Below, in pieces: positions 13,806 to 54,945 of a stretch of 64,000 nucleotides of DNA. The stretch's first letter is position 1; every line of letters starts with the position of its first letter. The notes under the pieces were generated by a model. The model saw only the letters and a list, made by a program, of their open reading frames with translations, did not search any database and had not been told where the DNA came from. Position numbers and translations under genes: made by a program. Source of the DNA: a virus (lineage: Duplodnaviria; Caudoviricetes); IMG/VR virus record IMGVR_UViG_3300021255_000109, positions 116,779 through 180,778 of that record; one strand, 5' to 3'.

Positions 13806-14330
13806 ATGGCAAAAGTTGGATTATCTAAACTTGGTCTTAAAGTAAATACTAATATTATTCATTTTAAATGGAATGACCAAGATATTGAAATAAAAGCATA
13901 TTTACCTGTTTAGGAGAAATTAGATTTATGTGCGCGCATTATTAATGAAAGCGTTGATGATCAAAATTTTTATAATCCTGGACGTGTTGCAGTTTATCAA
14001 GCGATTGAAATTGTATTAGCATACACAAATATTTCAGTGACAGAAAAGCAGAAAGAAGATCCTTGTAAATTATTTGATTTATTTACTTCAAGTGGCTTAA
14101 TTAGTGAAATATATAATCGTATTAATAGCAATGAGATCGCCGCAATCACCAATATTGTGGAAGGTGCTATTGAAAATATTTATAAGTATAAAAATTCAGC
14201 ACTTGGTATTATGCAATCTATTGCTGATAATTATAGCGATTTAGATTTAGATGCTGCTAAAATTCAAGAAAAATTAGCAGATAATAACAATTTAACCCTA
14301 TTAAAAGAAGTAATGACTAAATTGGGCTAA
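13806..14330 (+). CDS. Hypothetical protein, candidate tail assembly chaperone (174 aa)
   Basis: AAAGGAG RBS; IEIK.YLP..EK motif; one TAG; immediately upstream of the tape measure gene. Confidence 0.6.
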
Positions 14331-14370
14331 TTAAAAACATTTATCTAACTTATTTTTTATATAGGTTAGG
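14324..14370 (+). promoter_or_regulatory. Conserved intergenic motif copy 1 (putative late promoter)
   Basis: GGGCTA at 14324, TTTTA ending at +35, TAG at +43. Confidence 0.6.
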
Positions 14371-14377
14371 AGTAATC

Positions 14378-14418
14378 GGGAGTAGAGATTATCTCTACTC
14401 CCTTTTATTTTTTATTTT
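14378..14418 (+). terminator. Intrinsic terminator / attenuator upstream of the tape measure gene
   Basis: GGGAGTAGAGA-TTA-TCTCTACTCCC followed by a long T tract. Confidence 0.8.
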
Positions 14419-14456
14419 GCAAAATAAAAAATTTTGGAGAGAAAGGAGCAATTATA

Positions 14457-17400
14457 ATGGCAGATAGAAAATTGTCTATTAGTCTTTAGTTTATTTCTGA
14501 TACTCAAAAAGCAAAGGCTGAAATTAAAGATTTACAGAAGTCATTAAATGATCTTTCTTTAGGTAAAAATACAAATAAATCTTTACTTACTTAGGAAATT
14601 AAAAGTGCTACAGAGGCTGCAACTAAGTTGTAGATTGCATTAAACAGTGCTGTTAATGTTAATACTGGTAAATTAGATTTAAGTAAATTTCAAGAATCTC
14701 TTAAAGCAAGTAATATGTCTTTAGCAGATTATTAGAGAGAATTATTAAATTTAGGTCCAGATGGTGAACGAACATTTAGACAGCTGGCTTAGGCCATTAC
14801 TGATGCAGAAGTACCATTAAAAAGAACAAATTCTGTCTTAAAAGAATTTGGAGAGACATTATCTAATACTGTAAAATGGCAAATTTCATCTTCAGCTATT
14901 CATGGTTTTATGGGAGCCATTTAGTCAGCGTATGGATATGCACAAGACTTAAATGAATCTTTAAATAAAATTCAGATTGTTACAGGTCATAATATAGATT
15001 ATATGAGCCGCTTTGCGGACCATGCCAATAAAGCAGCTTAGGCTTTAAGTTCAACTACTTTAGATTATACTGATGCTGCATTGATTTACTATCAATAGGG
15101 TTTATCAGATAAGGAAGTGCAAAAACGTACTGATATTACTTTAAAGATGGCTAATGCCGCAGGCGAAAGTGCGCAAACTATTTCACAACAATTAACGGCG
15201 GTATGGAATAACTTCGCAAAAGGCGGAGAAAATCTTGAGCATTTTGCAGACGTTATGACTAAATTAGGTGCAGAAACTGCATCAAGTACTTCTGAGATTG
15301 CTGATGGTCTTGAAAAGTTTGCTGCTATTGCTGATACTGTTGGTTTATCTTATGAGTATGCGGCTTCTGCTTTAGCTACTGTAACTGCTACAACACGTCA
15401 AAGCGCCGATGTAGTTGGTACAGCTTTTAAAACTTTATTTGCACGTATTCAAGGCTTAAATTTAGGTGAGACTCTTGAAGATGGTGTCGATTTAAATAAA
15501 TATTCACAAGCTCTTGAAAAAGTTGGTGTTGACGTTTTAGATGCTAATGGCAAGTTAATTGCCATGGATGATATTCTTGATAGACTAGGTGAGCGTTGGG
15601 GAGAACTTACTAATGCTTAGCAGGTAGCATTGGCAGAGACTGTTGCTGGTACTCGTCAATATTCTCAAGTAATGGCTTTAATGGGCAATTGGGATTTCTT
15701 TAAAGAAAATTTGAATCGTGCATAGAATTCTGATGGAGCATTACAAGAGCAAGCAGATATTTATGCACAAAGTTGGGAAGCCGCTAAAAAACGTGTATAG
15801 GCAGCAGCAGAAGGAATTTATAAAAGTTTAATTAACGATCAATTCTTTATTGATTTAAATAAAGGATTAGAAAAAGCTTTAAATGGAATTAATTTATTTA
15901 TTCAGGGAATCGGTGGAGCAAAAGGTGCAATAACAGCATTATCTGGTGCTGTATTAACTTTATTTGGTGATAAAATAGCTGCCACTTTATCAAGCACCGC
16001 TTATAATATTAGTATGACATTTAAATCAGCACAAGATAGAATGATACAAGTAAAACAAGAAGTTAATCAATTAGTTGATAGTTATTATAGCGATATTGAT
16101 ACTTCTGAAAATGGTAATTTTAGAATATTTGCAGATGCTATTAAAGCAACTACTGCTGAACAAATGGCATATATTCAAAATGCTGAAAAAATGTCAGAAG
16201 CTGAGCGTCATATTAATGAAAAAATAATTGAACGTCATTAGTTAATGGTATCTAATATTGAATAGTTAACTACAGAATTAGCCGCATTAGAGAAAGCAAG
16301 CAATAATTCTGATTAGAGATTTAATTTTGCAACTCAAAAAGTAACAGATGAAGATATGCTTAATGCTAGTAAGCTTAATGCCAGTGAGCTTAATGAATAT
16401 TTAGGTCTTTTACGTGAAGAATTTAATGAAGTAAATTCGCAAGTTAGTGAATTTGCAACATTATCAGAAGTTGCATCAGCAGGTGCGGATCATTTTAAAG
16501 ATAAAACAGTTGATGGATCTAAAGCTTTAGAATATTTAGATTAGTTATTAAAAGATAACGGCATTGATATTAATAGTATGTCAAATTCAGCTTAGAGTGA
16601 GTTTAGTAAAATTAAAGATATTTTTGAGAAAGTTGCTAATGGTGGAAAATCAGTTGGAGATGCATTTACTGAGTTGACAGCAAAAAGTGTTGAACTTGAT
16701 TCAGAAACTTCAATGTTATCTGAAAGAATGGGAAGACAAATTGCTGATATGGAAAATTCCGTAACAACTACAATGAAAGATGGAGATGCAAAAACAAGAC
16801 TATTAAACGCGATTAAACTATTATCACAAAGTCATCAAGAATATAATGAAAAATTAAGAGAGATAAAATAGGCTTATGCAAATTTAGCGGCTGGTACTGA
16901 AGATCATGCGAAAAAGATGGAAGCAGTATAGAAGTCTTATGTAAAAGGATCTTAGGCTGTAGTGGCTTTTGGGCGTTCTGTGACCACTGGTATGAGTGCG
17001 GTTAATTCTGTTGCATCATTGATTAATACTTGGAAAGATGGACAAAAAGATTTAGGAGAGTAGATTGCTGCTACTACTTCTGCTCTTGGAATGTTATTAC
17101 CAATGGCAGTTACTTTTATTCAAACTTTAAAAACTATGAGTCCAACTTTACGCGTGATTTCTATTGCATTAACGGCAATTTCAGCGATTGGAACAATAGT
17201 TGGTAATATATTTAAAAGTATCAAAGATAATAGCCCAGAATAGCAATTAGAAAATTTAAAATAGGCAAATGATCAATTAAGTGAAAGTATTGCAAATGTT
17301 GATGAAAAGTATAAAAAATTAACTGATCATTTTGATAAATATAAATCAATTACTAAAGCTTTGTCAGAATGTCAAAAAGGTAGTGATGAGTGGTATGAAA

Positions 17401-20400
17401 GTTTAAAAGATGTTAATACAATTACACAAACTTTATTAGATGATTTCCCAGAATTAATGAGATATGGTTTTGAATATAATGAAGAGTTAGGCCGTTATGT
17501 TGTTGCTGAATAGTCAATAGAATCATTACAGTCTTAGTTACAAGCACAAAAAGATTCATTAGAAATGGCTAAATCAATTAATTTAATAACGCAAGGATCG
17601 TTTCAATATGATAAAGACGTATAGACGGCTGAATCAAATTATACAAAGAATTTATTAAGTTAGATTAATGAATTATATGGTACGAATAATTTTGCATTAG
17701 AAAAATTAAATTCATATATGCAAGCGGGATGGATGAATAATGAAGATTTAGTATACCTAATTGATCATTTTAATGAATTAGTGCAGTTAGATAATTATGA
17801 TTTGGCTGATAAATTAACAGATACTTTTGATGGATTAACGTCGGAAACAGCGTCAATACTTGGTGATAGTCTTTTAGAATCTTTTGAAACTAAATTAAAA
17901 TAGTTTGGACAACAACGTATGACTGAAGTCGCCAAGCAAGAATAGGATAATATAGATAATCAATTATCTATTTATGATAAACAAAAAGGCGATTTAGAAG
18001 TATTAATAGCAAGAGAACGAATGGCATTAGGAGAAGAACTTGGCAAATTAGATACTCAAGAAAAATTAGATAATTATGTTAATAATCATTATGCAGATAC
18101 ACAAGCATTGATAAAACAATCTAATGCAGCACAAGTAACTAATGAAGAGGCGGCAAATGCTTAGTCAAAAGCTAAAGTATCTTATAATGATGCAGTAAAA
18201 GCTTATCAAGATGTTGAAGATAAACGCAATCGTGATTTTTATTTATTATATTTACAGCGTGCAGCTGATATGATGGCAGGTATGCTAGCAGATAGAGATA
18301 TTGAAGATAGAAATCAACAATTTAAAAATGATCGTAATCGAGAGTTAAGAGATCAATTGCTTGAAGTTAATGAATTGAGTAATGATGATGCAATAAAAAA
18401 TTTAGGATCTGACGTAGCAGTAGTTGTGTCTTAGATGAAGAATATAGGCGGCGCGTATACTAAATATGTTAATATGTTATCTCCTGAAGCATTAGAGGCA
18501 GATCGTTTTTTAATAGAACAAAACTATGCTGATGAACTACAAAAATTATAGTAGGATGTTGATATTAAAAAAGAAGAAATGGATGCAGCTAATAATGTTG
18601 CAGAAACAGCAAAAAATAATTATGAAGAAGCTACAGCCGATACTATTCAATCAAAAACAGAAAAATTAATTAGTTTAACTGCTCAACTGGGAGAAGTATA
18701 GAATAAAATAGTAGATTTGGAAGAAAAACAAGTAAAATTATATACACCACAATAGGCTAGTGCTAAAGGAGTTACAAGCACATACCAAGATGAATTAGCA
18801 GTAGCTTAGAATAAATAGATTACAACAGGAGCTGCTGCCGTTTCAACAATGGTAAGTATTTTAGACGAAGAACTTGCTACTACTTATGGGAAAAATGAAA
18901 CATTTTGGTCAAATGCATATTTAGCCATTCAAGATGATATTCTAGATCTTACTGATAAGACATTGAATGAAATTACTGAAGGCAATGAAGATTTATAGAA
19001 AAAAATTGCTGAAAGTTATTTATAGACTTTAAATGAAAATTATACTTTTACAGCAGTTAAATCTGATGGTACTATTGCATATAAAGATGAAAAAGGTGAT
19101 AAGAAAGAACTTGAAGTTGGAGATAAAAATTATATAGGATTACAACAATATGCTTTAGCCATGACAAAGTAGTATGATAAAGAAACTGGATTATTTGATG
19201 AAGATAAATTTTTAGATTGGTTAATGCCATCAGCTAAAAAGCAAGCTAATGCTATAGAAACTGCTTTAACAGGACAAATTGAATCAGCTACAAGAGAAAG
19301 TCTTGAATATATAATTCGTTTAAATGAAAGTGGAAATAAATTAACTCAAGCTACTTATAAAGATATTACAGATAGCTATGCGGCGCTTAAAGATTTAAAT
19401 ATTACAGGATTAGAAGAATTAGATTATCAAGAAAAAAATAAGTTACAACATATTCGTGGCGATACTTATAAGATAATACATCAAATAAATGATGATATTG
19501 TTGATATGTTTGGAGAAAATGTATCTGTTGAAGTCTTATCATACTTTTAGGATTTATTTGACTTTACTGATAAGTTACCAGATGATGGTGTACAAAGCGA
19601 GAAATTAAGAACATATTTTAATTCGATTTTAAGCACACTAAACGAAGAAGAGTAGTTAGATTTTCTTAATACTTTTGCAAATATAGATTGGACTAAAGTT
19701 ACTTCAGTAGAATAGATGTAGGAAATGTTATCAGGATTGGGTGTTGATTATGAAAAATTAAATATTGATGTTGCAACTTTTGTAGAAACAATGATGGGAT
19801 TTAATTATTTACCTACTACATATGTTGAATTAAATGATTTATTAACAAACATAGGAAAAACATTAGAAAAAATAGAATAGGGAGATATTATTGATGATGA
19901 TCAATATGCAAAATTAAAAGAATTATTTGGTGATGATGGAGATTTACAAAAATTCTTTTGGAAAACAGCTAATGGTTGGATGCTAACAGGGAATCCTGAA
20001 GAACTTGAAGATATGTATATTACAGAGGGCATAGAAAAATTATAGAAGATGAGAATTGAGCAAGCAGCTAGCGAATAGATTGTTGTAGATGACAAAGGTA
20101 ATATAATAAGCGGTGTAAACTCGGAAGAAGTTAGTAATTATTTACATGATGTATTAGGATGGGATGAAGAAGCTTTAAATAATAGTGAAGCACGAGAAGA
20201 TGCTGCAAAAAAATTAGTTGATGCATCTGAAAATATTAATATTAATATAGAAGACGCAGAACGAGCATTGTTATCTGTTGTTGATTCTTCAGATCGTTTA
20301 ACTGAAGTATTAGAAATTTTTGAACATAATGGATACGAATTAAGTAAAGGTACTGATCCAAAGGCTTTTGAAACATTTTTACGTGCGCGAGAAGCATAGA

Positions 20401-23400
20401 ATAAAGCTGGAGAAGGAGCTGGAGAAGGATTTGCTGGTACTAATAACACAGATGCTTTTTCATTAGAAGGATAGTCTTATGAAGGACAAAAATCAATTAT
20501 TTCTAGTTCATATGCTGGTGCAAAAGATTTACGCACTATTGCTACATTAAATGATATTTTTGCGCAAGAAACATAGTCTAATTTAGAAACTGCACAATCA
20601 AAATTTAATCAATATGATTAGGCTCGTCGTACTGGTGCCCAAATTCCGGCTGAAGAAGCAGAATAGATTTTAGCAGATTATAATAATGCATAGCAATTAG
20701 TATTAGATGCTAAAGCTTTAGCTAAAAAGGCTATGGATGATGCAGTTGAGGCTATAAATAGTACGACTGATTTTGCTTATGCGTTACAACAAGGATTAAT
20801 AACAAGTGATAATTTTACTGTAATTTATGGATAGACAATATCTGAATTGAAAAAATTTGATGAAGTACAAGAGTTAGAAGATATGATTGCAGATGCCGCA
20901 GAAAAAAATCCTGAGATTAAAGCAACTTGGGAATAGACACAGACTAATAGTGTTGCAGCTTATGAAATGATTTTACAAAATACTCAAGACAGTATAAAAA
21001 CGGTTGAAGATGCTGAAGCATTTTATAAATACTTTAAAGATAAGGTTGGTGAAGGTAATGGTCTTTTAAATTCTGCAATGCAAAATATATTAAAAAACAT
21101 TGAAACATCAATCAAAACAGTAGATGATTATGCTACTTTAAGCGAAGAAATGCTTAGTATGCTGTAGAAAAATGGATTACTTACTTAGGTACAATAGAGA
21201 GTAGCAGCAACATTAAAGGATTTACCTTCATTATTTGAATGGGCGAATGAGAATAACATAGGCTCAGAAGGATTAGATTAGCAATTTTTAGCTCTTGCAG
21301 GATCAGCTAAATCTGGTGATGAAGTTAAAGCATTTAACGGAAAAGTAAGTACAGAAGCTTATAATCAGGGTTTATCTGACTTTGGTACAAAACAAATGGA
21401 ATCTGCAAAAACTTGGGACGAAGCATATAAATTAATGAAAGAATATAATGTCGAGTTAAATGAAAAAACTATCCCTGGTTTATTAGAATTAACTACTACT
21501 TTATCTGCTTTTGATACTGCGGCAGAGGTTTTGACAAATGATTTAGGAGAAGATATTACTGCGTCTGAAACTTGGTTTTTAGAATATTCTAATGCATTAA
21601 CAAAAATAGCAGAACAATATACTCATACTTCTTTAGAAACAGAAAATTATAAATAGGCAGTTGACACTTTGGGTGATGCTTAGAAAATATTAGCTGATAA
21701 AAATGCTGAGCTAACAGAACAATATAGTCGACATATACAAATTAATGGTGAATTAGTAGATCTTGATGAACGTGCTATTAAGAATTCACAAGATTTAAAT
21801 TCATATATTGATGAACATACAAAAAAAGAACAAGAGCTAGTAGAAACGTTAAAAGAAAAAATGGAAGTGGCTCAAGCAGAATTACGTGCATCAATTTTAG
21901 CAGGTGAAGGAGCTAAAAAATATGGTTTAACTGCTGAAGATGTTGAAACACAAGCAAAATTATTGGCAGAACAAAGTAAAAATGTCGCGGAAGGCTTTGA
22001 ATTAGATATTGAGTCAGCTACACGTATGGCTGTTGCAAATCAGCGTTTAAATCGTGGTATTAAAACTTTACATGATAATTGGGAAGAATGGTCTGATATT
22101 TTAAATAATACAGATCATGGTATGCAAGATTATGCAGAAACTTTAAATGATGCTCGTGATGCTTTAGCAGACATGGTTGGAGCTATTGATGCTGATGCTA
22201 TTTCATTAGATTTCTTAGATAATACAACTGATTCTGGACGTCATCATTTGGAATTAATGGGCTTAGCCGCACAAGGTAATGTAGATGCAATTAATCAACT
22301 TGGTATTGCTGTTGGTTATGCCGCTATCGAAATGCTTGAATTTAGTGATAATACTACTCAAGTCTTTGATGAAGTGTGGTCAAATTGGTCTATGACTGCT
22401 GAGGAATTTACTGGTTATAAAGATACAGTATTGCAGGGTATTACATAGTTAGAAGAAAGCGTTATTAATGGAACAATGACTGCCGGTATGGCTGTAGATG
22501 CTATGGGGTCAGATTGGGTTGAAGCTTTAAACCAAATGGCTCTTGCTACTGGTATGTCTGTAGAAGAGATGAATGCTTTTTTAAATGAGTTAGGTGTATA
22601 GGCAAAAGTAGAAGTACATGGTGAAAAAACCAAAATGCAAGTACCTACATATGAAGAATATTCTAAATCTGAAATAGTTGAACCAGAAGAATATGGTCGT
22701 CATATTATTGGTCGTAATGACGCTGGTGAACCAGAATGGGCAGATTATTTGAAAAAACCTGCAACCTGGAAAAGAACTACTTGGACAGTGCCTGGACCAC
22801 CAACAGAAGTAGAAGGATATCAAGAAGTTGCTTAGATTTCTACTGTTGATAATCCAAAAACGCCATTAGTTACATATACTGGAACAAGTGGTGGAAATGT
22901 CGCTGCACCATCTCCGAAATCTACTGCTTCTAGTGGAGGAGGCAGATCTTCAACTCCAAAAACACCGAAAGGCTCTTCTCCTAAGTCATCTAAAGGATCA
23001 GGTGATAAAAAGAAAGAATAGAAAGAAAAGAAAGATTTTGAAGATGAGTTAGATCGTTATCATGTAATCCTCGCGCAAATAGATGACCAAAAACGTAAAT
23101 TAGATGAATTAGGAAAGGCAAAAGATAGAGCATATGGTAAACAAAAAGTAGATAATATGAATAAAGAAATCAAAGCGCAAAAAGAATTAAATAATAAAAC
23201 ACAACAATATATTGATGAAATTAAAGATTATTTAAAACTTGATAAAGACGCTATGAGTCCATATGGAGCTATTTTTGATGCTGATGGTAATATAACTAAT
23301 TACGAAGATATTATGAAGCAACAATTAGCTATTTATAATGCTGCTATTGATGCTTATAATGCATCTGCGCAAGAAGAAGCTGATAAAGAACGTCTTGAAG

Positions 23401-26228
23401 CCGCCGAAAAAGCTTATGAAACATTTAAAGAAAAATTAAAGCAATATGAAGATACTAATAACTTATTGCAAGAGCAATTAGTAGAATTACAAGATGGCTT
23501 AAAACAAGTATATGATGATGTAACTGCTAAGAATGAATATATTATAGATTTAAAAATAAATGTTAATGATAATGAATTAGATTTCTTAGATTATTTACAA
23601 GATAAGATTGATAATTTTAATGATGGCGTTAATGAGGTAAGTGAGAAATTAGCTAATTTAAATGATGAAACTGGTGCGCTTTTGAATAGATCTGATATTC
23701 ATAACGAAGGCATTTCCAGAACTCTTGGTCATTATTTAATTGATCAACTTGGTAAGAATGAAGATGAGGCTGCTGCTTTAATTGAGAAGTTTAAGACAGG
23801 AACATTAACTGATGAAGATATGAATTTATTTGCGGGAATCCCTGAAGCTGAAATGCAAAAAGTTCAAGAATATAAGAAAGATCTTCTTGATGATAATAAG
23901 AAGCTCATGGATAATATGCAAGAAGTTGTAGATACTGTAAATGATTCATTTAAACAAATCAGTGAAGACTTAGATGATGCAATGAAAGATATTGATCGTT
24001 CTACTGATGCGCTTGAGCATTATGGCAATATGATTGATATAGTTGGTGCGGATTTCCTTGGTGTGACTACGGATATAGCTAATGCACTCGATCAGGCTGA
24101 AGTAGATGTTGCGAACGAAAAGGTTGCGGCAACGAGAGCTAAATTAGATGCATTAAAAGATGATTATGCTGAAGCTGAAAAATTATATCAAGATGCTTTA
24201 GACAATAACGATGCAGTTTTGGCAGAAAAATGGAAAAACGCATTGAAGGAAATGGACGATGAGGTAAATGGTGCAACTCAAGACTTCCATCAGGCTTGGG
24301 AAGATGCTTTACGTTCAGCGCAAGAAGCATTAGAGGCTATGCTTGATCGTGTTAAGAATGATGCTCTTGATGCTATTGCAGGTAATGTTCCATACAGTCA
24401 ATTAGCAGATTTAATGGATCAACAAGAAAAAGTAGATGATAGATTCTTAGATGAATATGAACAAATCTATGAAATGAGTAAGTTAAATCGTGATATTAAT
24501 AACTCTATTGGAGATGCTGATAATATCAAAGCTAAAGAGGCTTTAAGAGATCTTTAGAAAGAAATTAATAAACTTCAAGAAGATGGTAACGAGATGAGCC
24601 AATATGATTTAGATAATGCTCGTAGAAAATATGAATTAAAACTTGCAGAATTAGAGCTTGATAATGCTATGAATATTAAAGATACTGTAAGATTAAGTAA
24701 AGATTCTGAAGGCAATTGGTCATATATCTATACCGCTGATGAAGAAAAGGTAGCTCAGGCAGAATAGAATTATGAAGATAAACTTTATGCTATGCAAAAA
24801 GCTAATGAAGAATATATTAACAATATAGAGAACGAATTGGCCGGAGTACATGAAGAAATGCTTAATAAGATTGCTGAGATTCAAGCTGATTTAACTCTTA
24901 CAGAAGAGCAAAAAGCGCAATTGATTCAGCAAACTTATGATTTCTATACTGAATAGGCTTCTTATTATACTGGAGAGCTTGGTAAGGCTATTGATAATAA
25001 TAAAGAATTATATGATATTGATTGGACTAATTATTCCGCAAAAACAAGGAAACAAAAGATTGGCGAAGATGATTTAACTGAATATATCGCTGATAATTAT
25101 GGTTATAGGCTGGGTAATTTGGATAATTATATTACGGATTTCAATAATACAATGCTGAGTGATATTACAGGTTTTGACACTCTTGATGGTTTCGAGCAAA
25201 ATGCGCAGGCGGCTACTGAAAGTGCGGTTGCAGCTATGAACGCCGCTCATGACTAGTGGGCGGAGAACACAGAGACAACGATGCAGTTAGCTGGCACTTC
25301 TGTTGGTACTTTTGCTGAGGATATGATGAATGATGTTGATCAGACTATTGTACCTAAGGCTATAGAAGCTAAAGATGCTGTTGTAGATCTAGCAAATGCA
25401 TCTGTTGATGAATTTGATAAACTTGTAGGTCAAGCGCAAACCTGGCAAGATACTTATAGCACTTTAATGCAAGGTATTATTGATAAAAATGAATTGGTTA
25501 TCCAGTCTATCAATGGTGTTGATGAAGCTATCTCTAAATTAGAGGAATCTGAAGACGAGAATGTTTTAGGCCAAGACACTACTAATAAGATTTCTGAATC
25601 TGCTAATGCGGGTGCGGAAGCAGCTGCTACAGCTGCGGCAGCGGCACAAGCTGGAGCTGATTAGGCGGCAGCAAATGCGGCTCAATGGGCAAGAGTAATG
25701 CAGGTTTATAACTTAATTAATAGTGGTGCTGTTGGTAATCATGATACTGGACGTGTTCAAAATTTATTAAATCGTGGATATAGCCAGCAAGAGTATTCAT
25801 TAGGACAGCAGTTAATCAATATGGTTTATGATGCTGGCCTTGGTGGACGTGGTATGTCCATGGATGCTGCAAAGGCTGCATTAGGATTTGACTCTGGCGG
25901 TTATACTGGAGATTGGTCTGGTGCTAATGGACGTCTTGCTTTATTACATCAGAAAGAAATTGTTCTGAATGAAAGTGATACTGCAAACTTATTAAACGCA
26001 GTCGATATGGTGCGTTAGATTGCTAATTCTATTGACTTAAATGCGAAAGCAACTGAGTTTAATTTAGGTAATTTATCTGCGGCCGTGGGTATGCTGGGTG
26101 CGCGTTCTAGTGTAGACTAGAATGTAACAATTACCGCAGAATTCCCGAACGTGACCGACCGCAATGAAATTGCTGAAGCCCTTAAAACTTTAGTCAATGA
26201 AGCATCTCAATACGCTAATCGCAAATAA
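14457..26228 (+). CDS. Tape measure protein (~3923 aa with TAG=Gln)
   Basis: AAAGGAG RBS; all + strand ORF fragments from 15117 to 26018 share one frame; TP901-type core (TRQSADVVGTAFKTLFARIQG, AGTRQ); helical A/E/K/L-rich; hydrophobic segments near 15.9 and 17.1 kb; C-terminal FDSGGYTG...LHQKEIVLN; ends TAA. Confidence 0.9.
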
Positions 26229-26232
26229 TTAT

Positions 26233-26266
26233 AGGGGGAAACGTAAGTTTCCCCTTATTTTTTATT
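26233..26266 (+). terminator. Intrinsic terminator after the tape measure gene
   Basis: GGGGAAAC-GTAA-GTTTCCCC followed by a T tract. Confidence 0.85.
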
Positions 26267-26313
26267 GGTCAATTTATGATAAAGTAAGTATTCCAGTTTT
26301 TAAATTGTATAGA
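26267..26313 (+). promoter_or_regulatory. Conserved intergenic motif copy 2
   Basis: GGTCAA at 26267, TTTTA ending at +35, TAG at +43. Confidence 0.65.
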
Positions 26314-26337
26314 TAATGAGAGAAAGGAGACAGTTAC

Positions 26338-40715: not shown

Positions 40716-40717
40716 TT

Positions 40718-42844: not shown

Positions 42845-42865
42845 TAATGATAGGAGGACTTTAAT

Positions 42866-44833: not shown

Positions 44834-44839
44834 TTAAGA

Positions 44840-44886
44840 GGACAATTTTAATTAAGTATATATTTGTATTTTTTAATTTTTATAGA
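44840..44886 (+). promoter_or_regulatory. Conserved intergenic motif copy 3
   Basis: GGACAA at 44840, TTTTA ending at +35, TAG at +43. Confidence 0.65.
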
Positions 44887-44899
44887 AACGTAAAAACTC

Positions 44900-44930
44900 T
44901 AAGGGGTTAAATTAAATATTTAACCCCTTA
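44900..44930 (+). terminator. 13-bp hairpin (weak terminator or 5' UTR stem)
   Basis: TAAGGGGTTAAAT/ATTTAACCCCTTA; poor U tract. Confidence 0.55.
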
Positions 44931-44958
44931 AATTTATGATAGAAAGGAGAATTCCTTA

Positions 44959-47900
44959 ATGAATGATAGCGGAATCAAGTTTAGACCAGTAATGGGGACT
45001 GAAGATTTCATTAGGAATGCCGAACAATCAAACGGTTGGTTCTATGTTGCAACAGACACAGGTGCTATGTACTTGGATGTTGAAAATAGACGTATCCAAG
45101 TTGGTGGCTAGGGCGGCAGTGGTGGCGGAACCGCAGGATTCGTTTGGGCAAATGGTAATGACACTCAGATTCTGAAATTAGTAGAAGATGATGAAGATTA
45201 TACATATAGTGTTGCCCTTGCCGCAATCGAAGGCGGTGTTGCTCCTAAACCAGATCAATTAATTCTTAATTCAGATGGAAGATTTTTCCGTGTAATAAGA
45301 ATTGATACTGAGGCTGTAGCTGCAATTTGTACTTTAATCGCTGTAAGTGGCAGTGGTGGAGGTGGCGGTGGAACAGTAGTTGAAGAAGACTTAAAAGTCG
45401 CTGTTGATTCTTCAACTTTAGCTCGTAACTTTACTTTAGTTTCTGGTAAAGATTATTATGTTTCTGTAACTGCTACTTCTACTGTTGATGAATATGTATC
45501 TTTATATTTCACTTTTACTGGTGCTAATAATTATACTTATAATAAAACTGTAACCGCAAAAAGTGGTGAGCCTTATTTATTAAATGTAAACTTCTTACCT
45601 CCAAATGATAGTATCACAATGAAGGTTGAAGCTGATTCTGATAATACAAAGATGAAACGACTTCCAGTACGTACTGTATCTGGTGTTAAGGTCGTTGAAA
45701 TGCGTATTCAGAAGGTTTCTACATTTAATACAGCAACTGCGGCAACCGGTAGTGTGGCTGTAGAGTATTACTTGATTGGTGATCCTGCCATGGATGAAAC
45801 ACTTCACGTTGCTGTTGATGATATTGAAGATTTTGAATTACAAAAATCTGATAGAGTAAGTTCAAGTGTTAAGTCAGTTAGTGTACCAAAACAGGTTCAT
45901 GGAACTCATAATGTAACACTTTGGGTTACTACAACTATTCAAGAGACAACTGTAGAAAGTAATAGAATTACTTATGAAATTGCTTGGGTTGATCCAGAAG
46001 ATTTAACACCTATTATTTGGACTGGTGAATATCCTGATACTGTTATTCAGTATGAGCCTTTCACAGTAAAATATCAAGTATATGACCCAACAGCAGTTGC
46101 AGCAAACGATTATTTTACTGTTTATATCCAAAAGAGTGGTGTAAGAATCGCAGAAATCTCAAGAAAATATGAGGCTGGCCAATGGCTAACATTGGACTTA
46201 ACTGAAAGCTATGAAGTTGGTGACAACAACTATACAATTGTGTGCGGAACCGCACAACCTAAAGGAATTAACTTTAATGTTACTACTGTTGGTTCAAGAG
46301 ATTTAGGTATTGCTTAGTCAGAACGTCTAATTATGAATTTATCTTCTACTGGACGTTCAAGTGATGAAATCGCAGCTAATCGTGAAACTTGGGCTGATGG
46401 TGCATATAAAGCTACACTTAATGGTTTCAACTGGTATAACAATGGTTGGAAGAATGATGATGATGGAAATGGCGCTTACTTATCAATCGCCAATGGTGCA
46501 ACAGTAACTATCCCATTCCGTAATTTTGCTACCAACCCAATTGAAGACTTTCAGTTTAATGGTGTAAATAAAAACTACACTTTGGAAGTAAGATTTAGAA
46601 TCAGAAACGTACAAGAATATTCTACACTTGTTACAACTAATCCATACTACTATGTAATGGAAAATGGTATTAAGTCTGAACATGGTGTGCCGATTGCTGA
46701 TATTAAGGCGCAGAATTTAACTGTTGCTGTTGATGAAGATGGTAACTGGTTAATGGACCAATAGTTAACTGAAAAGATCACTAAGACCGAAGAAGGTGTA
46801 TGTTTTAAGGTTTTAAACAATAATAACTATGGTCTTTGCGTTGGTACATAGGAGGCTTATTTCCGTTCACCAGAAGGTACTACTAACGTTCGTTATAAAG
46901 AAGATGAAGTAATTAACTTCTCAGTTGTTGTTTCTAACGCTGATAAATTGGCTTCTATTTACTTAAATGGTATCTTATCAGGATCTTTAAATCTTGGTAA
47001 TGATAGTGCTTTCTATTGCGGTGATACTATCACAATTAATTCAAATTATTGTGATGTTGATATATATAAGATTCGTTTCTTTAATACTGGTTTAACAATG
47101 CCAGAAGTTATTCACAACTATATTTCTGATATTCATGATCTTACTTTGTATGATCAGAACCAGTTAACTAAAGAAGATCCAACATTATTATCTTATACTA
47201 AATTAGTTGAATACAATAAAGCAATGCTTGAAGAGGGCAATATTGATGCTTTATCAATGCCTTATGCAGTAATTGAGATTATTGATAATGCAACTGGTAT
47301 GGTAAATCCAAATGGTGGTTCTCACGCACAAACTGATGACTTGCTACCTTGGAAGAAAGGTAATAATAGATATTGTAAGATTACTTTTGTAAACCCAGTT
47401 CTTGATGCGCTATATAACGCAGGAGAAATTGATGCTGATACTTATGAAACTCATAGTCCATCATATGTATGTATTGGTGCAGATATTAACGTCCAGGGTA
47501 CTTCTTCTCAGGGTTATCCACGTCGTAATTATAAGACAAAGATGAAGTCTGCGGTTAATGCAAAAGACGTAAATAAAGTAGCTCATGATGATTGGGGTTG
47601 GTTCTATACCAATGAAAAATTCATTAATGAAGCTAAGGGCGGCAAAGCTAAATTCAAGAAGTGGAAGCAAGATAATCCGAACTACGGAACTAATAAATTC
47701 ACTTGGAAGATTGACTACATGGAATCTTCAGGTTCATATAATACAGGTTTCGCAAACTTAGTTGGTAATAATATTTATAGTACCCATCCACTTGGTTACT
47801 ATCATATTCCAGATCTTGATACAACAGGTTTACGTTCATCTGTATATGGTTTCCCATGCTTAACATTCCATAAGCACAGTAAGCCATCTGACAACGCAAA

Positions 47901-50900
47901 AGTTGGTACATTACTTGAAGATGAAATTTATGAATATATTGGAAGATATAATATCAATCAGGATAAGGGATCAGATGAATTATTTGGATTCTCTCTTGAA
48001 GATGAACAACCTTATGTTACATTAGAAAGAGAGGTAACAGATCCTGATACTGGTGTTACAACTACAGAATCTTATCATCCTACTATTGCAGATGTGGCTG
48101 AGTGTTGGGAGATGACTGATAACCAAGGTTCTTGGACTTCATTCTCATATCCGGCAGAAGCACAAACCTCTCACTTTAGTACATATACTTCTGATGGAGA
48201 TGGAAAACTTGAAGTGATTCGTCACTATGAGTGCCGTTATCATAAAGATCTTGACTTTATTGAAGTTATCGCAAGCGATGAAGCTCCTTACGATTTAGCT
48301 ACTGTAACAGCTAAGATTAATGATCCAGAAGTAAAAGAGGACGAGCGCGCAATCTGGGAGAGTATTAATACTATTCCTAAGATGAATCAGTTTATCGTCA
48401 ATAAGTGGAGCAACTGGGAGCGTTTCGTAACATGGTGTGATTCTACTGATAGAAGAAAAGCTAATCCTGAACTTGATATTACTCCAATCGAATATGAAGT
48501 TGATGAATTCCCAACCGATATGACTGGTGTTACAACTAGAACAAATGGGGATATTAAATATGCAACATTTACAAAAGATACAGCTGCATATCGTTTACAA
48601 AAGTTTAAGAGCGAATTTAATAAACACTTAAATCTTGAATATTGTACTGTATACTTTGTTATGACTGAATTACTCCTTTGCTATGATTCTCGTGGTAAGA
48701 ACATGATGATGGCATCATATGGTCCTATTGAAGCTGGCGGAGATTATATTTGGTTCCCAATTTTCTATGATATTGATACTCAGTTAGGTTTAAATAACAT
48801 TGGTGCAACTCTTTGGGATTATGATACAGATGCTACTTTAGAGCAAGCATTCTCGACTCCTTCAAGCGTTTTATGGGTTAACTTCTTAGATTGCTTCAAG
48901 GACGAAATTGCTAACAAGTATAGAAATTTACGTTCAGACAGCAAATTAACTTATGAGACTATTGATGGTGCTTATTTATGTAATGCAGCAGTATTTGATT
49001 CATATGCAATGAGAGGTATTCGTCCTATTATTGCTATTGGATTAGATGAGTATTATAAGTATGTAGCTCCTTCAAAGACTGGATATTATAATACTTCTGG
49101 TGCTTTAGTATATGATAATAACTCTTATGCGTATGCGGTAAACGGTGACCGCATGTTATCACGTGAGTTGTTATTACGTAACCGTTTGAATTATATGGAC
49201 TCTTATTGGATTGCTGGAGATTATACTCCAGCAGGAATGGCGCAGGGTGGTGTTCGTATGAGAGCGAACGCAAACAACCAGAGTACATCTGATAAATACC
49301 TGGATAGCGCACGTTTGAGTGAATTACCATCTAACGCATGGAGTGGTGAGGAACTTGCACCTTATCCAATGCCTTATTATGATGCAACACCAAACTTTGA
49401 GGTTACTCCATTCTTAAGCCAATATGTATTCTCTTATAATGATAAACAGCCTTCAAGTAAGCCTGTAAAATATCAGGGTCAACCTGTTTCAGTTATCGCT
49501 GAAGGTGTTGAAGATGGTTATCGTGCTACTCCTGGTATGCCTGAGCAGATCGTTTACTTACCGGCCGAGGATTATATTTCAAGTCTTGGTGATTTAAGTA
49601 CAAAATACTTATCACAGTTTACATTGGCAAATGGTAAGAGAATTCTTGATATTACTATTGGTAGTGATGCTCCTGACTACTTTAACTCATTGTTAGGTGC
49701 GGGAACTGGACAATTTAATATTAATGACTCTAAGTATTTATCTACTGGTAATCAAGCATTGAACCCAAGTAGAAAGACTCTATTAAAGAAGATTAATTTA
49801 ACCAATGTTAAATCTTTACAAGATGCTCTTGATATTAGTGGTTCTGAGAAATTGGTTGAATGTAGAGTATTAGGAACTAAGATTCCTTACGTTACATTCG
49901 CAGAAGGTGCTCCATTAGATTGTATCCACTTACCATGGACTGTAACCAAGATTGACTTAGTCGAAGCAACAAACTTAACAAGAATCTTAACTACTAAACC
50001 AACAGTTTGGTAGAACACAAGAGATAATTATACTGGTCTTTATATCGAAGACTTAACTGATAGTTTAGAGGATGGCGGTCCAATCTTGTATCATACTGAT
50101 GAACAAGGTAATAGACTACCAAATAAGATTAATCGTATTAATATCGTTGGCGGTAAATTAGGTTATGATTCTTATAGATTATTAGACAAGGCCGTTAAGA
50201 TTAAAGACTTTGAAAACGCAGATGGACAAAGACTTCAGATTAACCTTGAAGATGTTGAATGGTCTCCATACGTTATGGTTGAAGCTGGAACATTATATGA
50301 CGCAAATGAAACTTATTACAAGTTAACTGACCACAGTACATTTGTTAGTTATACTCCTGATTTCTCAGATCCAAACGCATGGAATACTGACACATTAAAT
50401 GGTTTAATCTTTACTTACAATGCAAATCCGCAACAGACTTTAATTACTTCTACTGAGTTATTAGATAAGTTTATTGCAGATTACAATCGCGCAAATGCGA
50501 CAGCAGAGAAGAGAAGTCATTATACTAATTTAACTCAATCTTTAGGTTATCCATATTTAACAGGTTCAATTTATATTGCTAATGCTGATTCTCAGTATGC
50601 CGCAATTGAAGAGGAAGATATCACTGAGAAGTATGGTGCAATCTGGAAAAAGTTAAATATTTATGCTGCAAAAGTTAATGAAGCTTATGTTGCTAAGTTC
50701 ATGCACAGAACTGAAAACGGACAAGATAAGCAGATTGACATAAAGAGATATAAACAACAGTCAAATGTGCATCCAGAGATTACCTCTGTGCTTCCTAACT
50801 ATCCAAATTATGATTTCAAAGGATGGAGCTTAGATCCTGCTCATTCTATTGTTGAACAAGCTGATTACGATCGTCTTGTTTCCGAGGGCAAGATTTATGC

Positions 50901-51957
50901 AAAAGGTACAACCGCAAATGATTTAACATTCTCAGCTGAGTCTGATATTTATGTTTTCTATGCTGTATTCGTACCACACCCATACTCAATTACATTTGAT
51001 ATTGGTAATAATCAAACTGTAACTGTGCAAACTCCTTTCAATCATACTATTAATCTGCCTGCGGCAATGCCTTATCAAGATGAAAGCGAACTTCCTCTGG
51101 AAGAGAAATATGCTTTCTTAGGCTATGCAAAGACAGCAACCGCTACTAAGCCAATAGATATGTCAAAGGAAAAGGCTTTAAGAGATACTAAATATTATGC
51201 AGTATTTAAGAGATCAAGTGTATATGCTAACCCAATTCCAAATGAATACATTATCTTTACTGGACCTTCAGAAATCACCGTTGGTGTAAATACTGATGGT
51301 ACTTCAAAGAGTGCTTATGGCTATACTATTGGATTAAATCCAAATTATAGCTATCAAGGCAAGATTACATTACCATCATATTACAACAATTATCCAGTTT
51401 TAGCTATTGCAGCTGGTAGTAATGATCAATCAAGCGCACCAAATGGTTTTAGCTATAATAATGGTGGTAGAAATACAGCAACTCATGTATTCTTTGATAG
51501 AGAGGCTGGTGAACCAGCTTTAGCTCGTATTGAGTCATATGCTTTCTTCAATAATACTACATTGCAGTATGTTGAGATGCCAGAGACACTTGACTATATT
51601 GGTAACTTTGCATTCAGTGGTGCAATTACTAAACTTGAAGAGTTACCTGTGAGATCCATTGGTGAAGGTTGTTTCAACTCTTGGGTAGGTCAAAATGAAA
51701 CTATGCACATTGCCGGCAAGGTCTCAACTATTTTGAGTACACCTTGGTGCTATATGAGAGGTAGTGGTTTAAGACATCTGATATTCGGAGGTCCTGGTGA
51801 TCCAGTGCAATTAAAATCACTTCCATCTACTGCTTTGTTTATTGAAACAAATATTGAAGATGTAACTATTTATGTGGCAGATCAAGGTACAGCAATTAAA
51901 GACCATGTTTGTTGGACTTTGGGTAATCCTCCACAATATTCATGGGTGGATGCTTAA
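44959..51957 (+). CDS. Giant multidomain tail appendage protein (2332 aa): fibre anchor, LamG-like domain, CotH-like kinase domain, Listeria-Bacteroides-type repeats, BspA-type LRR
   Basis: AAAGGAG RBS; one frame with 5 TAG; IYLNG...DIYKIRFF..GL (LamG-like); QGTSS..YPRRNYK, YNINQDK, DSRGKN, W.PIFYDIDT (CotH-like); Y.FKGWS; IESYAF...YIGNFAF. Confidence 0.75.
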
Positions 51958-51972
51958 TAAGGAGGTTTAAAT

Positions 51973-52173
51973 ATGACTCGTCAAATTTATTACCGTTATA
52001 TGGGCACGAATGGAATGATTGAATCTCCAGTGCATCTGGAAGGGATTTACTTTGTTCGCTTAGTCCAATTAACTGCTGATAAAAATAAAGTTTTAACAAA
52101 TGGCACAATAACTACGACAACAGTCAGAGTGCCAGAAGAAGAGGAACAAAATTGGAAAGAGGTTAAAGCTTAA
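51973..52173 (+). CDS. Small fibre-associated protein (66 aa)
   Basis: AAGGAGG RBS; L.AD..K.LTNG...W.EV pattern; directly follows the fibre gene. Confidence 0.7.
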   Translation: MTRQIYYRYMGTNGMIESPVHLEGIYFVRLVQLTADKNKVLTNGTITTTTVRVPEEEEQNWKEVKA

Positions 52174-52178
52174 AGTAA

Positions 52179-52225
52179 GGCCAAAACCAATTTTATGAAC
52201 TGTCGTAGTTTTTATAAACATTAGG
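52179..52225 (+). promoter_or_regulatory. Conserved intergenic motif copy 4
   Basis: GGCCAA at 52179, TTTTA ending at +35, TAG at +43. Confidence 0.65.
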
Positions 52226-52239
52226 AAGAAAATATTACT

Positions 52240-52271
52240 GGATAGAGAGACACAAGTCTCTCTATCCTTTT
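52240..52271 (+). terminator. Intrinsic terminator-like hairpin
   Basis: GGATAGAGAGAC-ACAA-GTCTCTCTATCC followed by TTTT. Confidence 0.75.
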
Positions 52272-52300
52272 AGAAAATTTATAGAAAGGATGACAAACAA

Positions 52301-54232
52301 GTGATTACTTCTATTAATACTGATAATAGCAATGATTATAGAGCACTGTTTCAATCAGCTTATGATTTCTTAAAAGCTAATAAGAGTGCGCTTAGTGCTG
52401 ATCGCCAAGCCTCTATTGACAATATGACAGGAATCACTTCAGTTCAGCAGTATTTCTCTCACTTAAGAGATTTACTTGATTTAGCTGATCAGGGCGGTAA
52501 GAAGTTCTTAATGCTGCCTTTAGATGAGCCAGTATTTGAAATTGATGCTGACAAACGTGAAATCACTGTTCCTGCTGTCTTTAAAAAGAATGGTATCAGC
52601 GTTCAAGGTGATGAGATTGCTGAGAGTTTAATTTTTAGAATTAACCGTTTCTTTGATTATGCTGACTTAGACAATATGACTATTCAGATTCAATGGGAAA
52701 ACGCGAACAAAGAACAAGGTTTATCTAATATCTATGTAAAAGATAATTCTAAGAGTGCTGATTACCTGTATTTTATGTGGCCTTTAACAGAAGAAATTAC
52801 CAGATATCCTGGTACAATTAAGTTCTCTGTTCGTTGCTACAATGCTACAGGAAATACATTAGCATATAGTTTAAGTACAAAGATTGCTGCTGCAACTATT
52901 AATGCTGGACATGACTACAACGTTGAGAACTGGACAACTGGTATTGACGATGCTACCGCTCAATTTAACAACAGTATTCAGAATAGTAAGAATACGGCTG
53001 CTGAAGACGCACTTGCTCCTTATTATTTAGTTAACTTAGATGATGAGACCGGAGAGGGCGAAAACGCAGACTATAATAATGGTCAAGTTCTTGAGGCTTA
53101 TATAGATGAAACTAATCCTTATCAAACACTTAGAGTTGAAGCTACATCTAATGATGCTGGTACAATCAGCTATAAGTGGCAGTATAGAGACCTTTTAGAG
53201 ACAACATATACTGGCGGTTTAACATATGATCTTGCAGAAACAGTAGAGTATATTCCTACTACTGATGAAGCTAAGGTTGACCATAAGCTATATTATAAGC
53301 AATCTGGCGATAATTATGTGCCGGCTGAGTTCGAAGTAACTGAAGGCGTACAATTATATGAGAAGACTTCTACATATAAGGTTCAATATCATGCAGTTGG
53401 TAAGAACACTGTTACTCTTGAAGATGGCGTAATGCCTCATGTAGTTGGACAGTATAAGGCTATTGCTCGTAATACTGTTGGTGATAACTATGAAGAGACC
53501 GATTCTGTTACTATCGTATTCCCAAGTCCTGAAAAACTTGAGTTTACCGAAACTGGTGATTTAAGTAATAATTATTTCTTAAATAATAATGGCATTGGTT
53601 CTATTTCAACAGAGGTTGAAATTGATGAGCGTGGTGCTAAGGCAACTTATGATTGGTTATTTGCAAATAGCCCAACAGGAGGATTCACTCCAATTGACCA
53701 GTTAGACGAAGCAGAACAGGCTAAGTTATCAGCTGAAGGCAATACTTTAACTATCAACAATAAGCCTGGATATTATAGAGTTATTGTAAAATCTACTCGT
53801 AACTATGATACTATCCAAAAGCAGTCTAACGTTTGTAAAGTAACTGGCGCACTTGCTGCTCCTACTATTGTTACTCCTGTTACAGATACTGCTGTATCTT
53901 CAAAGTATGGTACTGCTCAACTTGTTATCACTATTGCTCCTTATGCAAATGATCTTGAGTCTGAGAAGGTAACATATTAGTGGTATAACGATAAGGATGA
54001 GGCATTAGAAGGACCTCAAGCTGCAGGTGAAGTTGGTACTAACAATACTATCACATTCAGCGCTCCTAAGGGCGATCGTAATGGTTACTATTGTAAGATT
54101 CGTAACTGGATGGGTGAGACCTTTGCTGAGACTCGTTCTTATGACTTCTCTGTAAACCCATTCGAGCCAGAAACACAAACTCCTACTCCTCCAGAGCCAG
54201 AACAACCTGAAGAGCAAGAACCATAGGGATAA
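52301..54232 (+). CDS. BppU-like baseplate protein with C-terminal Ig-like domains (643 aa)
   Basis: AAAGGA plus GTG start; D..AE...F.I.R.FD..DL, W.L....T...G.I.FS.R; ISYKWQ, TYDW, TY[Q]WY...YYC Ig signatures; ends TAG-GGA-TAA. Confidence 0.65.
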
Positions 54233-54257
54233 TTCATAAGATAGGAGGCATAAGTAG

Positions 54258-54854
54258 ATGATTACAATTTCTACAGAATACTATCGTAATCTGTATAAAA
54301 TTTAGCAAGATATGAACTTGCCAAGTCTAGCAATTTTGCTTCCATCTACCGAAAACATTTACGAAGTTGATTTGAATACAAGGAAAATTGAAGCTCCAGA
54401 GTTTTTAAGTAACTATACCGATCATGCTGCTGAGGTTATCTATTTTAAATGTAATAGATACTTCGATTACATGGATCTGGCTTCTTGTGCTATTGTAATA
54501 CAATACAAGAATGCCGCAGGAGAGAATAGAATTTATCCTGTTCCTTTCGTAGATGTTGCTACATGCTCTCTGGAAAACAAGATGCTTATTCCATGGTGTG
54601 TAGATGGTAATGTGACTGCACAAGCTGGAGAGGTTACGTTTTCTATTCGTTTTTATAAAATTGATGTTAATGGCGCAGCTTTACAATATAGCTTGGTAAC
54701 ATTACCGGCGAAGAGCCAAATATTAGAAGCTATGAATGTTGTTGAAGATGATGCAGAACCTTTTGTATTTACTCCTTCACAATATGAAGAGTTAGTTGCG
54801 CGAATTCAAGCATATGAACAGAAAAATGATTTGACATGGATTGTGTTAAATTGA
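54258..54854 (+). CDS. BppU-like baseplate protein (198 aa), paralog of the upstream N-terminal domain
   Basis: AGGAGG RBS; DHAAEVIYFKCNRYFDYMDL and VT..AG.V.FSIRF; one TAG; ends TGA. Confidence 0.65.
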
Positions 54855-54858
54855 CATG

Positions 54859-54896
54859 ATAGGGGAAGAACTTCGGTTCTTCCCCTATTTTTTTTT
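54859..54896 (+). terminator. Intrinsic terminator with cUUCGg tetraloop
   Basis: ATAGGGGAAGAAC-TTCG-GTTCTTCCCCTAT followed by a long T tract. Confidence 0.9.
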
Positions 54897-54898
54897 AT

Positions 54899-54945
54899 GG
54901 GCAAAATACTTTAACCTTACTTGATTAGATTTTAATTACAATAGA
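54899..54945 (+). promoter_or_regulatory. Conserved intergenic motif copy 5
   Basis: GGGCAA at 54899, TTTTA ending at +35, TAG at +43. Confidence 0.65.

Follow-up and report, generated by a model that had tools for sequence, protein, structure and literature searches.

A spaced intergenic motif in a TAG-recoded gut phage: a putative late promoter class with a candidate phage factor

The final 64 kb of the 180,778-bp IMG/VR phage record IMGVR_UViG_3300021255_000109, which has direct terminal repeats, contain a spaced motif in front of giant tail genes. This whole stretch of 64,000 nucleotides (nt; positions 116,779 to 180,778 of the record) is called the window; coordinates refer to it unless they are marked as genome coordinates. 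The motif is composed of a six-base element (box 1), a T-run and a TAG box. Its informative core is GGNCAA-N24-TTTTTA; TAGR is secondary and found mainly in the tail block. From the sequence we infer that the motif probably marks a phage-specific class of putative promoters that have no -35 element and would be used by the host RNA polymerase together with a phage DNA-binding factor. The most likely assignment of the element is a late promoter class with a dedicated factor, putative and a variant of kinds already described, in a large group of TAG-recoded gut phages.

Gut phages with recoded stop codons are both uncultured and abundant. A promoter class that marks recoded genes, combined with a candidate factor whose synthesis would be gated by TAG, constitutes a testable model for the coupling of recoding and late transcription. 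In annotation, the motif may serve to delimit transcription units, to flag late genes and to point to recoded genomes. It also provides an entry point to PHROG 5767, a very large family of proteins labelled "sigma factor".

Copies, spacing and position of the motif

TAG is a sense codon in this phage, a point absent from the first-pass annotation. The total length of the open frames increases from 7743 to 20061 amino acids (aa) once TAG is read as sense. With the standard code, the region 12.7-42.8 kb consists of short fragments of open reading frames; with TAG as a sense codon, it is resolved into genes of 3923, 2533, 894, 1223, 2332, 643, and 2306 aa. Recoding of TGA or TAA was rejected, as the open reading frames do not gain from it. 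In the minus-strand genes at 10-83 kb of the genome, which are mostly TAG-free, in-frame TAG is scarce. The five motif sites are intergenic only if TAG is a sense codon. The tail block then contains exactly five gaps of at least 100 nt. Each of them holds one motif copy and, 3' of it, an AAAGGAG ribosome-binding site (RBS) and a start codon. The intergenic position reported in the first-pass annotation is therefore correct only under this code, and copy 1 deviates from it: its box 1 extends over the Gly codon and TAA stop with which the gene at 13806-14330 ends. The copies and the elements adjoining them are as follows.

14324..14370, plus strand: motif copy 1; box 1 GGGCTA at 14324-14329, T-run with TTTTA at 14353-14359, TAGG at 14367-14370
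14378..14413, plus strand: intrinsic terminator 3' of copy 1; hairpin at 14378-14402 with U-tract, -20.5 kcal/mol, z -6.8
14408..14431, plus strand: perfect AT palindrome of 24 nt, TTTTTTATTTTGCAAAATAAAAAA, between this terminator and the tape-measure RBS
14457..26228, plus strand: tape measure gene; 3923 aa, 71 in-frame TAG, RBS at 14442-14448, PF10145 match with E 9.7e-30
26231..26264, plus strand: terminator at the end of the tape measure gene, 5' of copy 2; hairpin with U-tract, -18.1 kcal/mol, z -4.95
26267..26313, plus strand: motif copy 2; box 1 GGTCAA, TTTTA at 26298-26302, TAGA at 26310-26313; followed by an RBS at 26323-26329 and the ATG (26338) of the 2533-aa gene
44840..44886, plus strand: motif copy 3; box 1 GGACAA, TTTTA at 44871-44875, TAGA at 44883-44886; followed by a hairpin without a good U-tract (44900-44930) and the ATG (44959) of the 2332-aa fibre-like gene
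52179..52225, plus strand: motif copy 4; box 1 GGCCAA, TTTTA at 52210-52214, TAGG at 52222-52225; followed by a hairpin with a weak U-tract (52240-52267) and the GTG (52301) of the 643-aa gene
54858..54896, plus strand: terminator 5' of copy 5; hairpin with U-tract, -22.9 kcal/mol, z -6.0
54899..54945, plus strand: motif copy 5; box 1 GGGCAA, TTTTA at 54930-54934, TAGA at 54942-54945; followed by an RBS at 54956-54963 and the ATG (54974) of the 2306-aa fibre gene

An exact scan with GGNCWA-N25-TTTTA-N7-TAGR, the pattern originally proposed, yielded five matches in the window (14324, 26267, 44840, 52179, and 54899), compared to 0.01 in shuffled sequences. All are on the plus strand, and no further exact copy was detected on either strand of the whole 180,778-bp genome, which bears out the initial count of five plus-strand copies. 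Since the pattern had been composed after inspection of the sites, a null model allowing for post-hoc choice was used. Aligned in their best common 47-nt register, the five gaps agree in 13 columns, compared to 8-11 invariant columns in 200 dinucleotide shuffles; by this test the excess is real yet moderate. Stronger evidence than the shuffled registers is given by a spacer control: GGNCAA-Nx-TTTTTA occurs eight times at x=24 and zero to two times at any other x between 14 and 35. Among the box-1 sites, TTTTA-Nx-TAGR occurs nine times at x=7, five times at x=8, and at most once at other values of x. The fixed spacing is thus confirmed. An information analysis yielded three informative blocks only, namely box 1, the T-run, and (T/A)ATAG(A/G). 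Dyad symmetry was not seen in box 1, nor were direct repeats seen 5' of the motif copies.

In the form box1-N24-TTTTTA, the genome contains 11 intergenic copies, each located at most 90 nt 5' of a gene on the same strand. The six copies that are additional to those of the tail block are:

Genome 10509, minus strand: core copy
Genome 14879, minus strand: core copy
Genome 45929, minus strand: core copy
Genome 55489, plus strand: core copy
Genome 88831, plus strand: core copy
Genome 113974, plus strand: core copy

The copies, all on the coding strand, are preceded by a terminator or a stop codon and followed by a strong RBS. In five genomes, matches to a relaxed motif show a roughly 12-fold higher density in intergenic DNA and a bias towards the coding strand. 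The first gene behind the motif contains in-frame TAG in nine of 11 cases, compared to seven of 35 behind sigma-A consensus promoters (p = 3.9e-4). The description as a five-copy motif of late tail genes holds insofar as it marks late-type, TAG-containing genes, but the core has more than twice that number of copies and is not restricted to the tail. In the divergent gap at genome position 55405-55563, copy 55489 is the sole promoter candidate for the plus-strand operon; a sigma-A-like promoter is missing on that strand. This copy argues for initiation and against a role purely at the RNA level or in antitermination.

Each tail copy adjoins a strong hairpin (-17 to -23 kcal/mol, z -5 to -7). 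At copies 2 and 5 the hairpin is located upstream and has a U-tract; at copies 1, 3, and 4 it is located downstream, with a good U-tract only at copy 1. The names originally given to the downstream genes were retained in part. The tape measure gene is confirmed by PF10145 and the long fibre gene (start at 54974) by its Phage_fiber_2 repeat. The CotH label of the 2332-aa gene corresponds to a sub-threshold match only (18.2 bits), BppU_N was searched for and not found, and "tail tip" could not be confirmed.

Further upstream, a stretch of 478 nt (6554-7031), located 3' of a 376-aa head gene (PHROG 4088), looks coding, although no start codon was called. It ends with GGCTAA followed by a hairpin and may be a C-terminal extension made by frameshift or read-through.

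Other promoters of the phage and orthologous junctions in relatives

A consensus scan of intergenic DNA identified about 25 strong host-type promoters at 92-108 kb of the genome (A-tract, TTGACA-N17-TGnTATAAT). A further group of about 17 near-identical promoters is located at 33-89 kb (TTGATT-N17-TATAAT, with a conserved T/A-tract spacer). On the minus strand (for example at 55436, 75535, and 88787), members of this group read TTGATT-ttttNNaaaaaatttgN-TATAAT-atttaTAGAaaat, and both the spacer and the initial transcribed sequence are conserved. They contain TAG at the expected +1, and their spacer architecture is common to the canonical promoters at the tail junctions of relatives. The late block contains only a handful of canonical promoters, for example one at genome position 352 (before a 2364-aa gene) and the following one.

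13736..13764, plus strand: sigma-A-type promoter TTGACA-N17-TATAAT before a 174-aa gene just 5' of copy 1, in the same late block

As the early genes are preceded by about 40 consensus sigma-A promoters, the host enzyme recognises a -35 element, and the motif represents a distinct class. No -35 element was found at the motif sites; the sole hit of the consensus scan was a 9/12 match, at copy 5. Between box 1 and the T-run, motif-type sites contain zero information. The lack of resemblance to a sigma-A promoter stated in the first-pass annotation holds in this phage for the -35 element, and a canonical -10 element also appears to be absent. The consensus sequences of SigH, SigF/G/E/K, SigD, sigma-54, TcdR-type factors and SPO1 gp28/gp33-34, compared by eye, were likewise rejected, as none fitted all copies.

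With the tail protein next to copy 1, 191 relatives (57-76% identity) were found in IMG/VR, and 64 loci were fetched. In all fetched loci that reach far enough, the tape-measure position is occupied by a giant frame that is open only with TAG as a sense codon. The phAss-1 paper (PMC10607447) on this phage group predicts Clostridia as hosts and does not mention promoters. Despite protein identities of only 57-76%, the same element occurs in relatives at the same offsets. In four complete relatives, the distribution of distances between box 1 and the T-run has a clear peak at 23-24 in three cases and none in the fourth (G021).

At site 1, the 35 distinct orthologues share the order stop codon, AT-rich stretch, T-run, ATAG(G/A), hairpin, palindrome, and extended RBS. 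The hairpin shows compensatory changes and is followed by a U-tract in all relatives. A canonical promoter form was found in none of the 35. Most of these 35 relatives have retained the palindrome TTTTTTATTTTGCAAAATAAAAAA, which may serve as an operator or form another weak hairpin. The gene at 13806-14330 ends with Lys-Leu-Gly-stop. Two orthologues keep GGNCTAA despite a changed residue (L040, Val; L076, Ala), and in one subfamily the Gly-stop is located 10 nt, i.e. one helical turn, nearer to the TAG box. The interpretation of the site-1 box 1 as a mere Gly-stop coding constraint was partly withdrawn, given L040 and L076 and the recurrence of the box at non-coding sites.

Site 2 provides the strongest evidence for a promoter position. 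The terminator at 26231..26264 is conserved in 25 orthologues and is followed by TTGGNCWA in 25 of 25. In 14 of them, the junction continues with an A-tract, TTGACT, a 17-nt spacer ending with TTTTATGn (TRTG), TATAAT, AGA, and the RBS, which is a textbook Gram-positive sigma-A promoter. Box 1, T-run and TAG are located in these canonical orthologues at the offsets of the motif described here. The other 11, like this phage, have kept box 1, the T-run and TATAGA without a -35 element. As 14 of 25 relatives hold a sigma-A promoter in the same framework, the site-2 element occupies a promoter position. A comparison of two junctions (L098 and L104) shows that the spacers diverge, and that box 1, T-run and TATAGA alone are retained.

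The remaining sites are less uniform. At site 3, 19 of 27 junctions contain box 1; the T-run and the offset of 43-44 have been retained. TAG is here the centre (offset 43-45) of a short inverted repeat with co-varying arms, and several phages have ATG or GTGA instead. The arms, which in L160-L186 read for example TATCTCT/AGAGATA, TTCCT/AGGAA, ATTCCT/AGGAAT, and TTCTTC/GAAGAA, echo the stem of the large hairpin and may form a leader attenuator. Junctions orthologous to site 4 mostly do not contain the motif. The N-terminus of the site-5 gene has no orthologue in the relatives. Fibre genes of three relatives (G021, G017, and G004) are preceded by copies of exact geometry; the one in G021, before a 1407-aa fibre gene, is the positional counterpart of copy 5. 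With the 655-aa gene as an anchor no relatives were found, and the 55.5-kb operon and the site-5 gene did not yield usable orthologues because of their poor conservation.

Candidate proteins for reading the motif

The first-pass annotation had proposed to look for a phage-encoded sigma factor. Such a gene was indeed found.

Genome 52358-53218, minus strand: RpoD-like sigma gene; 286 aa, regions 1.2-4; regions 2/4 match with 82.8/76.1 bits, RpoD_Cterm with 313 bits

It is very hard to believe that this protein reads the motif, even though a full-length gene of the sigma-70 family is present. The gene occurs in nine of 28 relatives and in five of 16 near-complete genomes, and motif-type junctions exist in complete genomes that do not contain it (G008, G013, G017, G020, and G025). 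Because it is absent from 19 of 28 relatives and the motif is kept without it, it was rejected as the reader. The typical target of an RpoD-like sigma factor would be a -35/-10 promoter whose spacer measures about 17 nt, and the motif is not of this type. The RpoD-like sigma is an accessory gene and may be linked to the TTGATT promoter class. A 200-aa helix-turn-helix (HTH) protein at 88.9 kb of the genome was rejected as a universal regulator, as it occurs in only eight of 28 relatives. A search for beta-subunit-like proteins of a phage RNA polymerase gave no match, and the ArpU model was negative on this genome.

The most likely reader, judged from occurrence and gene position, would be a 359-aa protein whose gene opens the late block.

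Genome 112910-113989 (window -3868 to -2789): candidate factor gene; 359 aa, three in-frame TAG

This protein matches PHROG 5767, annotated as "sigma factor", over nearly its full length (E 6.6e-52) and has no Pfam domain. It is present in 27 of 28 relatives and in 16 of 16 near-complete genomes, with 62-75% identity, and the family comprises more than 6400 metagenomic proteins. In nearly all relatives, a consensus host promoter is located 5' of the gene. Motif copy 113974 lies within the last codons of the gene, and the packaging genes follow directly. The last codons likewise contain box 1 in about 14 of 23 relatives; the T-run follows 23-24 nt on and runs into TATAAT, CATAAT, or CATATT, all ahead of the next gene. 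The candidate gene is followed by genes of PHROG 3314 and PHROG 15503 and then by the portal block, and the same synteny exists in Enterococcus phage VRE9_3. For homologues in phages of Enterococcus, Brevibacillus, Geobacillus and C. difficile, the annotation reads sigma factor or LuxR; for VRE9_3 at least, it is an automatic PHROG transfer.

An AlphaFold model of the candidate is confident (predicted local distance difference test, pLDDT, 88). A Foldseek search of the PDB with this model gave nothing at E <= 0.001, a search of BFVD gave only uncharacterised relatives, and sequence and profile searches of the PDB gave nothing relevant. Residues 216-300 can be aligned with region 4 of sigma factors: SigB (8x6g_H) with Z 7.0, and SigH, WhiG, SigK, BldN (root-mean-square deviation 1.8), SigD, SigW, and CnrH with Z 6.3-6.9. 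A C4 zinc ribbon with four invariant Cys residues follows the HTH. An hhalign comparison of the candidate with a true RpoD-like sigma gave a probability of 0.45%. Taken together, the 359-aa protein is a plausible promoter-specificity factor or activator, as predicted from sequence and model; it is a sigma factor by annotation only.

Weighing of the promoter reading and comparison with known systems

We propose the following mechanism. The candidate factor would bind box 1, about 40-50 bp 5' of the start, and thus replace the absent -35 contact; the host RNA polymerase would initiate at or just after TAG, and only with the help of this factor. The TA of the T-run would probably be positioned at -12/-11, a register that is favoured by the ends of the factor genes of relatives. 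The motif would then serve TAG-containing genes, namely those of the packaging block, those for the tape measure, the tail and the fibres, and a small number of others, and each giant tail gene would obtain its own restart point after a terminator. Of the original idea of a late promoter that is read by a phage sigma factor or an activator-polymerase complex, the promoter-like position and the link to late-type genes have been retained, and the RpoD-like sigma as a reader has been given up.

Several observations weigh against this mechanism. A consistent -10 register was not apparent. With the TA of TTTTTA at -12/-11, ten of 11 copies contain A-11, but -7 is not conserved (T-7 in only about four of ten). 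With the T of TAG at -7, the register that fits the canonical site-2 orthologues, an enrichment of A-11 is not seen, and at 113974 this register is impossible, as the TAG belongs there to the Shine-Dalgarno sequence. Copies 1, 3, and 4 are located directly 5' of a strong hairpin, which a simple promoter model leaves unexplained; the hairpin behind copy 1 is a good terminator, so transcripts started at copy 1 should largely stop. The co-varying inverted repeat around TAG at site 3, where other bases sometimes replace TAG, hints at a role at the RNA level, and so does the resemblance of the site-1 TAG box to part of the 5' arm of the following hairpin. Some orthologous gaps do not contain the motif. 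The link between factor and motif consists of co-occurrence and gene position only, and in VRE9_3, whose homologue is 41% identical, no such motif was found in the 12 kb examined. With respect to the protein, none of 69 sampled PHROG 5767 members matches the Sigma70 Pfam models, including Sigma70_r2, so the label "sigma factor" appears to be an unverified automatic transfer. The Z-scores of residues 216-300 are modest and in the range of a common fold, and this segment can also be aligned with LuxR-type and small-terminase HTHs. The N-terminal half, folded alone, gave only matches to generic helical hairpins and no detectable sigma-2 domain.

The hairpins and inverted repeats keep two other explanations alive, namely Q-like antitermination and an RNA-level function. 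In a Q-like cassette, to which we concede a small chance, a weak promoter would be combined with a loading site, and the HTH/zinc protein would carry the polymerase through the hairpins after copies 1, 3, and 4 and further along the giant genes. This would account for the order motif, hairpin with U-tract and RBS at copies 1 and 4 and in all site-1 and site-3 orthologues. Like lambda Q, the candidate combines an HTH with a C4 zinc motif and is encoded directly before late genes. Sequences resembling a -10 element (GATAAT, AATAAT, AGTAAT) follow TAG where a sigma-dependent pause element would lie, and a chain of the Q21 complex (6jnx_P, Z 6.5) is among the weak structural matches of the candidate. 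However, such systems use a strong constitutive promoter, and the motif copies have no -35 element. Furthermore, copies 2 and 5 have their terminator on the upstream side, good U-tracts are missing from the hairpins that follow copies 3 and 4, and the candidate shows neither sequence similarity nor convincing fold similarity to any Q family. An element that acts in read-through mRNA, as an RNase Y-type processing site or as a strand for alternative pairing by which the next hairpin is modulated, would set the ratios of the flanking products without initiation. For this the TAG box offers some indications. Its pairing with the 3' arm of the adjoining hairpin is more stable than that with the hairpins of other phages (-5.25 versus -3.46 kcal/mol), although clade structure confounds this comparison and about half of the sequences account for the difference. 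In many cases the box nearly duplicates the distal 5' arm, in site-3 orthologues it is embedded in the short inverted repeat described above, and the TAAT(C) after TAGG lengthens the terminator stem. We nevertheless consider an RNA-level element improbable to a high degree: a downstream hairpin is absent at copies 2 and 5 and at the extra copies, box 1 at a fixed 24-nt distance is hard to account for, the copy in the divergent gap has no upstream transcription to rely on, and orthologous sites are plain promoters.

It is similarly improbable that the copies have no regulatory specificity of their own and are either remnants of ordinary TTGAYT-N17-TATAAT promoters or junctions that aid the swapping of fibre modules. 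Among relatives, motif-type and canonical promoters do alternate at one junction, a spacer containing the T-run is common to the canonical promoters, and copies flank highly variable fibre genes. However, box 1, T-run and ATAGR are intact despite diverging spacers, none of the 35 distinct orthologues of site 1 has a canonical form, and the 24-nt spacing is exact at unrelated loci. The conserved blocks comprise 5-6 nt and are therefore too short to drive homologous recombination. A promoter class that is served by the host polymerase and a phage factor thus remains the preferred interpretation.

A more far-reaching version of this interpretation is put forward tentatively, as a possibility that is rather less than probable. 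PHROG 5767 might constitute a new type of RNA-polymerase specificity factor that is unrelated in sequence to sigma-70, with a sigma-4-like HTH and a C4 zinc ribbon in each of its members. It would be transcribed from an early host promoter, be fully translated once TAG is read as glutamine, and direct the host polymerase to GGNCAA-N24-TTTTTA. If this were true, there would be a direct connection between the switch of the genetic code and that to late transcription.

Among described systems, the Ltr/RinA late activators of Gram-positive phages come closest. These activators of late operons comprise RinA, LtrA/B/C, and ArpU (Quiles-Puchalt et al. 2013, PMC3753634; Ferrer et al. 2011, PMC3152322). 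Ltr proteins are small and basic, bind to a region of DNA repeats upstream of terS, and control essentially one late operon each (PMC3753634). As proposed for the candidate described here, the gene of a phage DNA-binding protein is located just before the packaging genes, the target promoter lies at the 3' end of the regulator gene or just after it, and the late morphogenesis genes depend on Ltr. LtrA moreover resembles region 4 of sigma-70, as do residues 216-300 of the candidate. In contrast, the candidate comprises 359 aa including a zinc ribbon and has no Pfam or NCBIfam match to those families, and its putative target is a single 6-bp box 24 nt from a T-run, present in about 11 copies, one before each giant tail gene.

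In other phages, Ogr/Delta of P2/P4, C of Mu, p4 of phi29 and MotA/AsiA of T4 control activator-dependent promoters that have no usable -35 element and contain an upstream box read by a phage protein. The motif corresponds to these promoters in having a putative element near -10, no -35, and an upstream box at a fixed distance. The sequence, the 24-nt spacing and the candidate protein are unrelated, and box 1 has no dyad. The Q unit of lambda (PR'-qut-tR') contains a regulator gene just 5' of the late genes, whose product has an HTH and a Cys4 zinc motif. The position and the HTH/Cys4 combination of the candidate agree with this arrangement, as does the hairpin that closely follows the element at copies 1, 3, and 4. 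Unlike the lambda unit, the phage described here has no strong constitutive promoter at these sites and contains many dispersed units with the terminator on the wrong side at two copies, and homology of its candidate factor to Q proteins was not detectable. The PeSL cassettes of T4-type phages consist of ordinary host-type early promoters and are thought to mediate shuffling. They resemble the junctions described here in that short cassettes of a stem-loop terminator and a promoter are repeated between variable genes; in the recoded phage, however, the cassettes precede late recoded genes, and their promoter part is non-canonical.

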